A DNA stretch of 64,000 nt from Candidatus Micrarchaeota archaeon (GTDB lineage: Archaea > Micrarchaeota > Micrarchaeia > Norongarragalinales > SBBD01): contig JAHJQN010000008.1 in NCBI GenBank assembly GCA_018819225.1, positions 96,001 through 160,000 of the forward strand. The letters run 5' to 3'. A model generated the notes under the pieces. The model was not told the DNA's origin and ran no database searches. It worked only from the letters and a program-made list of their open reading frames with translations. The position numbers were made by a program, and so were the translations under genes. Positions 47,304 to 51,475 of this stretch are shown here, piece after piece (position 1 is the stretch's first letter; every line of letters starts with the position of its first letter).

Positions 47304-47363
47304 ACCACGCGGGTCTTGACAAAACCCTTATTAATCCAGAAAGCACTTAGGGAAGTGATTCGC

Positions 47364-48449
47364 ATGCCGAGAAAAAGCGCTAGAGGAAGTCCGCGAAACC
47401 AACGCGTACAGGTTCAAACCGCGGAAGCGTCCGACAGCCACCAAGCGAAGACCTCCGCTAAACCCAAAGGCTTCAAACCCATCAAACAAATCAAGAGCAC
47501 GGAAGAAATAGCCATATCCGATAAACTCATCGACCAAGTCGTGGGACAAGAGCGCGGCATCGAAATCATCCGAAAAGCCTCGAAACAGAAACGAAACGTG
47601 CTTCTCGTTGGAACACCCGGCACCGGCAAAAGCATGCTCGCCCAAGCCATGGCCGAACTCATGCCCATCGAGGATCTGCAGGACATCATGATTATAGCCA
47701 ACCGCGACAACGAAAACCAGCCGAAAGTCCGAATCGTGAAAGCCGGAGAAGGAAAGAAAATCATCGCCAAAGAAAAAATCAGCGGACGGCTCGCCGGCTC
47801 TCACACCAACCTCTTTCTCATCGCGTTCATGATCTTCTCCGTGTTCATTGCCCTGTATTTCCTGCCCAACTACTTCGATACCGTCATCGTAGCGGCCATG
47901 CTCATCGGACTCTTCCTCATGGGAGCCGCCATGATGTTCGCCATGCAATTGTCGCGAGGGCGCCTCGTGGAAGCCGATACCGCTAAACTGGCTGTGGATA
48001 ACGGCAAAATGAAGAAAGCCCCGTTTGTCGATGCGACGGGATCACGGGCGGGCGCATTGCTAGGAGACGTGAAACACGATCCGTTCCAAAGCCTGCCCCC
48101 TGAGCAAACATTGACGGGCACATCACAGCGCATCAACATGGAAAGCGCATGGTTTGAAATGGCTGCCAAATACCCCAATCGAATCGAAAAACGATCCAAC
48201 GGATATGAAGCCATTCGCCTACCCCGAAAAGAAAAAGTGTACGTGCTCGGAATGAAGAACGGGCGAACGGTTAAAAGCCGAGTCTGGTCCTTGAACCGTC
48301 GGCGCTATAAAGGAAAAATCAGCGAAATCAAAACCAGGGGACGACGCGTACGGACCACACCCGAACACGCCTTCCTCCTTGCAGGAAAAGACGCACCCGC
48401 ACGAACGCTCAAGAAAGGGGAGTGGCTGCAATCACTTAACGAGAGCTAA
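47364..48449 (+). CDS. lonB: LonB protease N-terminal fragment fused to an N-terminal half-intein
   Basis: LIDQVVGQE, Walker A GTPGTGKS, two TM helices, APFVDATG, GALLGDVKHDPFQ; no Walker B or protease domain. Confidence 0.93.
   Translation: MPRKSARGSPRNQRVQVQTAEASDSHQAKTSAKPKGFKPIKQIKSTEEIAISDKLIDQVVGQERGIEIIRKASKQKRNVLLVGTPGTGKSMLAQAMAELMPIEDLQDIMIIANRDNENQPKVRIVKAGEGKKIIAKEKISGRLAGSHTNLFLIAFMIFSVFIALYFLPNYFDTVIVAAMLIGLFLMGAAMMFAMQLSRGRLVEADTAKLAVDNGKMKKAPFVDATGSRAGALLGDVKHDPFQSLPPEQTLTGTSQRINMESAWFEMAAKYPNRIEKRSNGYEAIRLPRKEKVYVLGMKNGRTVKSRVWSLNRRRYKGKISEIKTRGRRVRTTPEHAFLLAGKDAPARTLKKGEWLQSLNES
48090..48446 (+). mobile_element. N-terminal split-intein fragment (IntN, 119 aa)
   Basis: Block A SLPPE directly after HDPFQ; RRRYKGKI.EI; block B TTPEHAF (TxxH); LKKGEWL then stop; no block F/G His-Asn. 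Confidence 0.85.
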
Positions 48450-48838
48450 TTGATTTTCGTCAACAGTTTGCGGCCCATAGCCACCATATACTGGATCTCC
48501 TTGCCCACTTCCACTTCAGACCTCATTTCCTCGGGAATCTCCACTTCGAACGTCTCGTAATCCTGCATGTCCATGAGCTGAGCCGACGTACCCGACAAGC
48601 TCACGACTTGCGCCCGCTTTCTCGCAATCATCGGTATCTCGATATCCCCATCCGAAGGCTTCGCCAACGAACGCTTGACTCCATCAAATATCCCAATGGC
48701 CACGACATTCATCTTCGCGGCCCCGTGTTTTCCGGGCTTGCTCTTGTCAATACTGACGACCCGACACGGAAAATCTTCAATTAAAACATACTTGCCAATC
48801 TTCAAGTCGCCCATGGTTGCGTAAATGCGATCCACCAT
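48446..48838 (-). CDS. eif5a: Translation factor aIF5A
   Basis: SKPGKHGAAK hypusine motif, QLMD..YETFE. Confidence 0.96.
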   Translation of the reverse strand: MVDRIYATMGDLKIGKYVLIEDFPCRVVSIDKSKPGKHGAAKMNVVAIGIFDGVKRSLAKPSDGDIEIPMIARKRAQVVSLSGTSAQLMDMQDYETFEVEIPEEMRSEVEVGKEIQYMVAMGRKLLTKIN

Positions 48839-48898: not shown

Positions 48899-50602
48899 TT
48901 ATAAACGCGAAACCGGTGGCCGAGAAGACCAATACAGGGCTCCGCCCACCATCAACAAAACCGAGACAAAGGCCATTACAGAAAAATTCCCTGAACGGGA
49001 ACCTGCCACCTTCACGCTGATTTCATTAATGGATTGTTTCACTTTTCCAAGTAAAGACGAAGCGTCTTCATCCCGTTTCCGAGCCAGCAATAATCGAACG
49101 CGCGCGAGCTCCGCTTCCTCTTCCGTCGTGTCTTCACCGGCTTCCTCCAGACGCCGCAATTTTTCCTCCAAATCCTCGAGTTCATCGGAACCGCTCACGG
49201 GAGTAAAAGAAGGCGTCGGCGTCAACGAAATCGAAGGCTCCACCGTAATGGACGGCATACTCGACGGAACATCCGTGGGCGACGGAGAAATCGCTGGAGA
49301 GGGGGTCGCATTTGAACCGGGATACGGATCCGGCGAGGGAGTGGGAGTGGCACTCACGGAAGGCGTAGGAGAAATCGAAGGAGTGGGAGAAATGCTGGGG
49401 GTCGGTGAAGGCGTCGGAGTGGGAGACGGAGTCGGCGTGGGTTGAGCCACATCATTAAACGCGTATACGTAGCCGTCAGTCGCCGCAACGAAAAGCGTGC
49501 CATCGGCCACCACCATCCCGCTCATATGACACGGCAAATTGTAATGCCAAAAAAACGCGCCCGTGTCGGGATTCATCGCGTACACGGCGTCGTATGCACA
49601 CGCATACAAGACATCATTGCCCGATAATACCAGGCGTCCCCGATAACCCCCTCCACCGGTTTGCCACCATTTTTGTCCTGAGCCCGCATCAAACGACCAA
49701 ACCAGGCTCTGCTGCGCCTGCGTGGGAATGAAGACACGGTCATTCGCGTTATCAACGGTTACTGGACCCGGCGCATTCGATGACATCGAGAGCAAGTACG
49801 TCCAAGCCCTCGAACCGTTTTGCGGAAAAAACGCGTTCATTCGCCGACCCGCGTAACCGGATGCATCCGGAACAAAAAACATATTGTAGGATGAGCCAAA
49901 CGAAGCGGGTTTGATGGGGTAAATCGTAATCGAACTCCACAACGGGTTCCCGGTTTCCGCATCGAACCCGTGCAAACGATACTGCGGAGAGGAAATAAGC
50001 GTGGTCACCACTCCGCCCCCCACCGCGGGAGGATAGTCTTTAGTATAGCGGTTAACCGGCGTCTCCCATTCCACCACGCCATTTTCAGCATTGACACGAA
50101 CCAACGCCGCCGTATCCTCCCCCGTACGTCGCACTAAAAACAGTTTCGGAGACGAAAAAGCCGTCGAGTACGTCAGACCAAACGATTCCCCCACATCCGG
50201 AATGCGCCACAATTCATCCCGAGACGGAATATGATACGCGAATAAATCCCCGTTATTGACGTACAACGTGTCTCCAACGAGCACGGGATACTGCCAGCCC
50301 GACATTTCAGCCAGCTCCGTCACATTGTCCAACCATTCGCCCGTCTCGGCATCCAACAATGTGTAATTCGAATCCGCCACGTTTTCGTAACTCGGAACCA
50401 ACAAGCGACCATTCGAATACAGCAGTTGAACGTGCTCCGGCAAACCTTCCGCCACCTTCGTTCTCCACAACAATGAGTCCGTCAATGGCCCGTCATCCGG
50501 CGTAAACCCCGAATGATGTTCATCAAAGCCGTACTGAATCCAATCCGTCGATTGGGACAAGGAAAAGAAACAGACGAACGCGACGAGCCAAAAGAACGTC
50601 AT
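48899..50602 (-). CDS. Secreted PQQ-repeat beta-propeller protein with S/P/T linker, helical stalk and TM anchor
   Basis: Signal peptide, DWIQYGFDEHHSG, repeated DAETG..W, SPTP repeats, C-terminal TM. Confidence 0.85.
   Translation of the reverse strand: MTFFWLVAFVCFFSLSQSTDWIQYGFDEHHSGFTPDDGPLTDSLLWRTKVAEGLPEHVQLLYSNGRLLVPSYENVADSNYTLLDAETGEWLDNVTELAEMSGWQYPVLVGDTLYVNNGDLFAYHIPSRDELWRIPDVGESFGLTYSTAFSSPKLFLVRRTGEDTAALVRVNAENGVVEWETPVNRYTKDYPPAVGGGVVTTLISSPQYRLHGFDAETGNPLWSSITIYPIKPASFGSSYNMFFVPDASGYAGRRMNAFFPQNGSRAWTYLLSMSSNAPGPVTVDNANDRVFIPTQAQQSLVWSFDAGSGQKWWQTGGGGYRGRLVLSGNDVLYACAYDAVYAMNPDTGAFFWHYNLPCHMSGMVVADGTLFVAATDGYVYAFNDVAQPTPTPSPTPTPSPTPSISPTPSISPTPSVSATPTPSPDPYPGSNATPSPAISPSPTDVPSSMPSITVEPSISLTPTPSFTPVSGSDELEDLEEKLRRLEEAGEDTTEEEAELARVRLLLARKRDEDASSLLGKVKQSINEISVKVAGSRSGNFSVMAFVSVLLMVGGALYWSSRPPVSRL
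49200..49445 (-). repeat. Ser/Pro/Thr (SPTP, SISPTP) linker repeats within the CDS
   Basis: PTPTPSPTPTPSPTPSISPTPSISPTP in the translation. Confidence 0.8.
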
Positions 50603-50668
50603 GCTCCCATTAGAGAAACGCGCTATAAAAACGTATGGAAATAAAAAGACGCAGAACAAAAAAAAATC

Positions 50669-51475
50669 ATGGAACTCTTCTTTTTGGGAAGTGGCGGAGG
50701 CCGCGTGGTCGTCGATAGGCAAGTACTCGCCACCGGCGGTTTTCGAATACACGGAAAAGAAATCGCGCTCCACGTGGACCCGGGCCCGGGCGCCCTCGTA
50801 AAAACCTATCAACATCACTTGGACCCCGCCAAGCTGAATGGAATATTTGTCAGCCACGCCCATATCGATCACTGCAACGATGCCTCCATACTCGTAGAGG
50901 CCATGGCATTCGGATCCTTCAAGAAAAAAAAAGGAATGCTGCTCGCCAGCCAAAGCGTGCTGAAAGGAATCAACGGATTCGAAAAACAAATCGACGATTA
51001 CTTCCAAAACATGTGCGAAGGCGTTCACGTCCTTCAACCCGGAGTGCCCGTCGCGTATTCGCCGCGCATCCGCATCCGAGCGCTTCGAACCCAACACGAA
51101 GATCCGAGTGCCGTTGGTTTGGAAGTGGAAGCCGAAGGAATGCGAATCGCCTACACGGGAGACACCGAGATTTTCGACGGATTGAGCCAGCAATTGAATG
51201 GCGCTGATTTTCTGGTGATCAACTGCCTCCGGCCCGGAAACGATCGGTTCCCCTATCATTTAAGCATTCAAGAAGTCGCCGACATATTGAAATCCCTTAC
51301 GAAAAAACCGAAAGCCGTCTTCCTCACCCACGCCGGCATGAAACTCGTTCAAGCCGGCCGCGAAGAGCAACGCCAATGGCTGGAAAAGGAAACGAACGTT
51401 CGAATCATTAACGCCGTGGAAGGCTTGAACGTCTCGTTAAACGAATTGGCGTCCCGACAACAAAAACTCGTTTAA
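50669..51475 (+). CDS. MBL-fold metallo-hydrolase
   Basis: FLGSGGGR, VDPGPG, SHAHIDH, YTGDT, LTHAG. Confidence 0.92.
   Translation: MELFFLGSGGGRVVVDRQVLATGGFRIHGKEIALHVDPGPGALVKTYQHHLDPAKLNGIFVSHAHIDHCNDASILVEAMAFGSFKKKKGMLLASQSVLKGINGFEKQIDDYFQNMCEGVHVLQPGVPVAYSPRIRIRALRTQHEDPSAVGLEVEAEGMRIAYTGDTEIFDGLSQQLNGADFLVINCLRPGNDRFPYHLSIQEVADILKSLTKKPKAVFLTHAGMKLVQAGREEQRQWLEKETNVRIINAVEGLNVSLNELASRQQKLV

Follow-up and report, generated by a model that had tools for sequence, protein, structure and literature searches.

A candidate natural split intein at the Lon site divides the archaeal membrane protease LonB between two separate genes

The lonB N-half gene and its surroundings

The window is the whole 64,000-nt stretch analyzed, corresponding to positions 96001-160000 of contig 7 (C7) of G000, a MAG-like assembly of 1.37 Mb in 8 contigs, about 90% complete. 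It contains a gene encoding the first part of LonB fused to the N-terminal fragment of an intein (IntN), convergent with the aIF5A gene. Archaeal LonB is made up of an AAA+ module, a transmembrane (TM) hairpin lying between Walker A and Walker B, and an S16 Ser-Lys protease domain. The features of the locus, in window coordinates, are the following.

47364-48449, plus strand: lonB N-half gene (P0001), 361 aa; N-extein, IntN and stop
47364-48089, plus: N-extein (LonB residues 1-242), with the beginning of the AAA+ module and the membrane hairpin, ending in GDVKHDPFQ
47610-47633, plus: Walker A, GTPGTGKS (from the sequence)
47808-47963, plus: LonB transmembrane hairpin, two hydrophobic helices, aa ~149-200 (Kyte-Doolittle scan)
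48090-48446, plus: IntN, 119 aa (TIGR01445, Pfam Intein_splicing)
48357-48368, plus: IntN block B, T90-P-E-H93 (from the sequence and alignment A1)
48447-48449, plus: N-half stop TAA, overlapping the aIF5A TAG stop (48446-48448, minus)
48446-48838, minus: aIF5A gene, convergent neighbour (Pfam IF5A-like_N, E 3e-17)

Residues 43-249 of the N-half protein match positions 4-202 of the LonB model TIGR00764 (E 2e-57). The extein/intein junction is at 48089/48090, where GDVKHDPFQ is followed by SLPPEQ, the Ser1 codon occupying 48090-48092. IntN scores 31.6 bits against the NCBIfam model intein_Nterm (TIGR01445; cut-off 24.5), and the last 119 residues of the protein match Pfam Intein_splicing (E 2e-6). 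An earlier, sequence-only reading of this DNA had described the ORF as a LonB N-part with Walker A and two TM helices, switching at 48090 to a Ser1 intein of 119 residues provided with block B; all these assignments are borne out. The ATG at 47364 is preceded by a Shine-Dalgarno-like motif (GGGAAGTGAT) and, about 30 nt upstream, by a TTATTAAT box; a TTG at 47316 is an alternative in-frame start. Walker B, Lon_C, and intein blocks F and G are all absent 3' of the N-half within the 64-kb window, the same result as in that reading.

The 4-nt overlap with the aIF5A stop, also pointed out from the sequence, was found again; the number of other convergent pairs of this type, given as six, was corrected to seven. 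The resulting eight pairs of convergent ORFs (at least 100 aa), found in the 12100-56272 interval of the window, share exactly 4 nt at the stop codons (TTAA, CTAG or CTAA), apparently the usual arrangement in this compact genome. A 786-aa ORF at 48899-51259 (minus strand) contains a long repeat rich in Pro, Thr and Ser (PTPTPSPTPTPS), has a hydrophobic segment at the C-terminus, and is probably a surface protein.

The C-half gene and the rest of the genome

A search of the genome with the LonB model located the complementary gene on the same contig.

G000 C7 52695-54074 (L001:1474-2853), minus strand: lonB C-half gene (P0002), 459 aa

The two genes reside on opposite strands of one 709-kb contig, 89 kb apart. 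The C-half covers positions 194-607 of TIGR00764 (E 2e-199/2e-200), and by itself scores 664 bits vs. a cut-off of 516.6. Its N-terminus (MPRKVQSVRVESKQSRRFDGFVYNATTSTGNYFANGILMHN, then SGGLGTPAH) is the C-terminal fragment of an intein (IntC), 41 aa long, ending in VYNATTSTGNYFANGILMHN, with ILMHN directly followed by Ser+1-Gly-Gly; IntC scores 18.3 bits against intein_Cterm (TIGR01443; cut-off 15.6). Walker B (LFIDE), RSRI, a LonB_AAA-LID domain, Lon_C, GDSAS and the catalytic Lys follow Ser+1. An unlinked ORF of this make-up, with a short IntC ending in HN, then SGG...FIDE and Lon_C, had been anticipated from the N-half alone. A TATA-like box (TTTATAAA), in-frame TAG-TAA stops and a Shine-Dalgarno-like AAGGTG motif are found 5' of the C-half ATG. 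Taken singly, IntN and IntC each score under the cut-off of Pfam PF14890, as expected for fragments corresponding each to half a domain.

An intact lonB was not found by the LonB model search in the ~90% complete G000 genome, the missing part of which might conceal a second copy. Contig 5 (L002:841-2280, plus strand) encodes a 479-aa Lon-like AAA+ ATPase lacking both TM hairpin and protease domain, with a CxxC...CxxC insert (weak DUF7130 match) between Walker A and Walker B. Homologues of this ATPase are found in 40 of the 41 genomes analyzed (the exception is G031), in which LonB may be either split or intact. Its role as a LonB replacement was ruled out, because it lacks TM and protease parts and co-occurs with intact LonB; its presence in relatives with intact LonB marks it as a separate paralogue.

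Contig 5 also carries two contiguous inteins with LAGLIDADG domains (L145:4-4065, plus strand; L146:1-3267, minus strand), hosted by a ribonucleotide reductase and a double-AAA (Cdc48-like) ATPase. Since these are contiguous, the Lon intein is the only split one in G000.

The two fragments match one mini-intein and one LonB

A contiguous Ser1 mini-intein of 161 aa resides at the Lon site in the relative G034 (L028:2107-2589). In alignments with this mini-intein, IntN (residues 9-118) covers positions 13-122 (41% identity, E 3e-31) and IntC (residues 3-41) covers positions 123-161 (49% identity, E 7e-15). The two alignments meet at 122/123, and the 119 and 41 residues thus correspond to one mini-intein cut once, between blocks B and F. 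In larger inteins found at the Lon site the endonuclease sits between the same two blocks.

The exteins are equally complementary. Walker A and the two TM segments are in the N-half, Walker B and the S16 Ser-Lys protease domain in the C-half, and the two jointly cover positions 4-202 and 194-607 of the 608 of TIGR00764. In intact LonBs of the relatives the sequence GDV[KR]HDPFQ/SGGLGTP is uninterrupted, and no residue is therefore lost or duplicated at the junction. The predicted junction peptide of the ligated protein is HDPFQSGGLGTPAHLR.

The complex of IntN and IntC, each modelled with 20 extein residues, reached an ipSAE of 0.82, vs. 0.00 for the best of three controls; at least 87% of the contacts were in common among runs, and partner pLDDT was at least 68. 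In a benchmark, 58 of the 80 solved complexes attained this ipSAE mark, as did 2 of the 110 mismatched pairs; these counts apply here only roughly, as our own alignments were supplied to the model. Split-intein complexes having already been solved, the high score may partly reflect resemblance to those structures, and denotes likeness rather than binding.

Conservation among relatives

The LonB search took in 41 genomes of the same order, G000 included. Pieces of split LonB, and no intact LonB, were found in all the 10 other genomes of the G000 family (N piece only in G003 and G007), and LonB is split in six further genomes from two other families. The remaining genomes encode either intact LonBs (630-720 aa) or contiguous inteins at the Lon site. 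The split surmised from a single genome is shared by relatives, and the scenario of a decayed pseudogene accompanied by an intact lonB does not match the data, an intact lonB being found neither in G000 nor in the 10 family genomes.

Sixteen IntN and 16 IntC sequences were extracted from the split genomes and aligned (A1 and A2, respectively). The identity of IntN to the window copy ranges from 41 to 58%. Residue 1 is Ser in 15 genomes and Thr in one, and T and H of block B are invariant in A1, as are the terminal Asn and Ser+1 in A2. IntN is 111-138 aa long in 15 of the 16 genomes, and 163 aa in G002; IntC varies from 30 to 50 aa. Fifteen other assemblies, all independent, have the IntN stop in the same column of the alignment. 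Every pair shows saturation of synonymous sites (dS > 1), and omega values (0.16-0.84, about 0.16 in the closest pairs) give an indication only and were not used as main evidence.

The gene neighbours of the halves were compared as well. Intact lonB adjoins RNase Z in most relatives; in the G000 family RNase Z is beside the C-half, in the two other split families the same locus is kept by the N-half. The N-half is convergent with aIF5A in nine other genomes of the G000 family; in the tenth, G004, the contig breaks off at this gene. The conserved arrangement marks the gene end at 48449 as old and inherited.

An exhaustive profile search of 1.84 billion cluster representatives (50% identity) yielded 122 matches, about 25 of which stop within 25 aa of the IntN end. 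A word-indexed homologue search with IntN alone returned the query only, such a search being blind to IntN relatives, too divergent to share 5-mers. Public records of the relatives are MAGs of Candidatus Micrarchaeota or Candidatus Iainarchaeum (DPANN archaea), and the halves are annotated as 'ATP-binding protein' or 'ATP-dependent Lon protease'; under such names LonB may pass for truncated or missing in surveys of genome completeness and metabolism.

Two C-half genes are found in G010 (contigs C49 and C54). In the second, the IntC-junction stretch, inclusive of about 30 residues preceding the start, is the same residue for residue as that of G009, which suggests a strain mixture or contamination of the bin. 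Two N-half proteins ending in IntN, P0003 (745 aa) and P0005 (802 aa), are about 400 aa longer and feature two intein-like stretches; judging from these, they may hold a further intein upstream.

Putative stages in the origin of the split

Lon-site inteins of the relatives can be arranged in five stages. Contiguous inteins with a LAGLIDADG-type middle domain at HDPFQ/SGG (stage 1) are found in G030 (428 aa), in P0017 (a 1159-aa LonB) and in Thermococcales. The presence of contiguous Lon inteins at this site in Thermococcales, mentioned in the sequence-only reading, was verified in Pyrococcus abyssi, P. kukulkanii, Thermococcus nautili and others, where inteins of 333-476 aa are inserted as HDPFQ/C...N/SGG; the site was read directly from the retrieved proteins, PMC3906313 giving no insertion-site data. 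At stage 2 (P0030; L144:3501-6984), a 683-aa gene made up by LonB-N, IntN and a LAGLIDADG-like domain is separated by 10 nt from a 473-aa IntC-LonC gene, the IntC being 37 aa long and ending in Lys-Asn. P0022, P0025 and P0032 look like P0030, with the endonuclease kept on the N fragment.

At stage 3 (G020, L046) the IntN gene, a free-standing gene for a 347-aa endonuclease-like protein (L046:2213-3244) and the IntC gene follow each other on one strand. The free-standing ORF has no Pfam match of its own, is similar to the middle domains of stage-1 contiguous Lon inteins (E 1e-48), and four of eight of its homologues among the relatives match LAGLIDADG_3; its identity as an endonuclease is based on homology to these relatives. 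The endonuclease-domain profile (A3) found no PDB match by sequence. In G039 (L037; stage 4) the halves adjoin, with an unrelated small ORF in between; at stage 5 the halves are dispersed, as in G000.

In a tree of IntN domains the split forms and the G034 mini-intein form one clade (99/95 support), apart from contiguous Cys1 inteins; the placement of G034 inside the split clade is weakly supported. From its position in the tree, the contiguous G034 mini-intein may stem from a split gene that fused again; alternatively, it may indicate that splits occurred several times independently. The split would have arisen from the known Lon intein site, by a break where the endonuclease was inserted; the endonuclease would then have been lost, and the halves would have moved apart. 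The series agrees with the gene-breaking model, which Dassa et al. 2009 (PMC2677866) put forward for DNA-metabolism genes of phages.

Probable trans-splicing and alternative explanations

We consider it probable (roughly 0.85) that LonB is encoded in G000 as two separately expressed genes, the halves being joined by split-intein trans-splicing. The data show both genes with their motifs, an exact fit of the halves to one mini-intein and to intact LonB, and conservation among relatives; from these we infer expression of both genes, association of the products in the cell, and splicing chemistry. The N-half would insert into the membrane, leaving IntN on the cytoplasmic side, and the soluble C-half would dock via IntC, IntN and IntC folding into one HINT domain. 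As the TM hairpin is carried by the N-half, splicing would occur at the cytoplasmic face of the membrane. Class-1 splicing would begin with the N-O acyl shift at Ser1; the acyl group would then be passed to Ser+1, the terminal Asn41 would cyclise, and an O-N shift would make the peptide bond. The predicted outcome is an uninterrupted LonB (~660 aa) joined as HDPFQ-SGG and able to form a hexamer, with release of the intein pair.

Three features were counted against trans-splicing. In most inteins block F has an Asp, and block G usually ends in His-Asn. The conserved block F motif of IntC, VYNxTTxTGN, features Asn in the usual place of Asp, and the penultimate residue of IntC is H, S, R or K, His not being kept in G001, G008, G032 and G036. 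Both the block F Asn and the variable penultimate residue are shared by contiguous inteins of the Lon site, the block F Asn occurring in those of DPANN archaea and Lys-Asn in Pyrococcus and Thermococcus. Finally, both fragments are net basic (IntN +16, IntC +4); the split inteins described so far have opposite local charges on the interacting strands (PMC2677866).

The changes in blocks F and G would suit a HINT domain working as a non-covalent clamp, which holds together a two-chain LonB without splicing; the complex model, too, speaks for binding only. Such an assembly appears unlikely. Ser/Thr1, T..H, terminal Asn and Ser+1 are useless for mere binding, yet are invariant, or nearly so, in 16 genomes, catalytic residues having been kept despite saturated synonymous divergence. 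The same block F and G variants occur in contiguous Lon-site inteins, which must splice to give a working LonB, and a domain of 160 aa left unexcised between Walker A and Walker B would lie at a loop invariant in all LonBs. We regard as very improbable that the halves are relics of a LonB being lost from a reduced genome, either pseudogenes or pieces with separate new functions. DPANN genomes do lose many genes, and a Lon-like ATPase paralogue is encoded by contig 5; but the latter, devoid of TM and protease parts and found also beside intact LonB, is not a replacement, neither ORF is truncated, Walker A and B, GDSAS and Lys being intact, and halves and intein catalytic residues are conserved across three families. 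The chance that a contiguous, intein-containing lonB was broken at 48449 by an assembly or binning error is practically negligible. G000 is a MAG-like assembly in several contigs; yet both genes lie inside one contig, each with proper start and stop signals, the IntN stop recurs at the same alignment position in the other assemblies, and synteny with the flanking aIF5A is conserved. The same architecture in 16 independent assemblies excludes misassembly, and the view of the stop as an evolved end, already advanced from the 4-nt overlaps, holds.

Trans-splicing being the preferred reading, a broader one may be contemplated, according to which the split is used by the cell and is not a mere scar, the fragments associate in a novel mode, and split genes can re-fuse. 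Taken jointly, these claims are doubtful. If they were true, anchor and protease half would be separately regulated, active LonB being formed only at the membrane and only when both genes are expressed, and trans-splicing would be a post-translational step of assembly or control of an AAA+ protease. The basic fragments would associate unlike the charge-steered DnaE and gp41-1, and the G034 mini-intein, nested among split forms, would imply that split genes are able to fuse again.

Comparison with known systems

Natural split inteins are few, and are workhorses of protein ligation technology; known ones come mostly from cyanobacteria and phages, where polymerases, helicases and ribonucleotide reductases are the hosts. 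LonB is a central, membrane-bound quality-control protease. Judged from its sequence, the intein in G000 LonB is a natural split intein at a known Lon site, with a new class of host protein and a membrane-anchored partner, and an entire clade of cellular archaea seems to rely on trans-splicing to obtain its only LonB. No description of a split Lon intein was found in the literature searched, in which coverage of subscription journals is thin, in line with the earlier statement that none was known. These LonBs would provide a natural, diverse collection of Ser1/Ser+1 split inteins whose charge pattern is atypical, an instance of one partner being anchored to the membrane, and a near-complete series of stages (contiguous, IntN-endonuclease fusion, fractured, adjacent, dispersed) in cellular genomes, on which the gene-breaking model of Dassa et al. 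can be tested by comparing genomes.

Contiguous Lon inteins of Thermococcales share with the G000 intein the host protein, the HDPFQ/...N/SGG site and a similar block G (GNL[LF]ANG..V.N). They are, in contrast, single chains starting with Cys1 and including an internal LAGLIDADG domain (333 aa in P. abyssi; 474 aa in T. nautili WP_042693108.1), whereas the G000 intein is encoded by two genes, starts with Ser1, lacks the endonuclease, and the split forms make up a separate clade (99/95). Ten LonB inteins were catalogued by Novikova et al., all from Euryarchaeota, none described as split (PMC4760082). The Mja KlbA intein (PDB 2jmz) is the closest solved structure by sequence (profile A1, E 1e-8, positions 32-134); it is likewise a mini-intein without endonuclease, but is contiguous, resides in another host protein, and the similarity is low.

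As in the dispersed DnaE of cyanobacteria and PolB of Nanoarchaeum equitans (PMC2677866; PMC4760082), the halves of the host gene are unlinked, IntN measures about 100-120 aa and IntC about 35-45 aa, and the break, located where the endonuclease inserts, parts block B from block F; this corresponds to step IV of the gene-breaking model. Unlike DnaE and PolB, LonB is a membrane-anchored AAA+ protease and not a DNA polymerase, the nucleophiles are Ser1 and Ser+1, IntN and IntC are both net basic instead of carrying opposite charges, and the split is spread over several DPANN families.

The stages proposed for the fractured genes gp41-1, NrdJ-1, IMPDH-1 and others (Dassa et al. 2009, NAR 37:2560, PMC2677866) match G020, G039 and G000. 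A free-standing endonuclease between the halves, the hallmark of fractured genes in that work, is present in G020 and missing in G000. Those fractured loci are DNA synthesis or repair genes, for the most part ascribed to phages; Vsr-like endonucleases occur in half of the loci (PMC2677866). The host is here a protease of cellular archaea, the endonuclease is of the LAGLIDADG type, and the series includes an extra stage, in which the endonuclease is still fused to IntN (P0030, L144).
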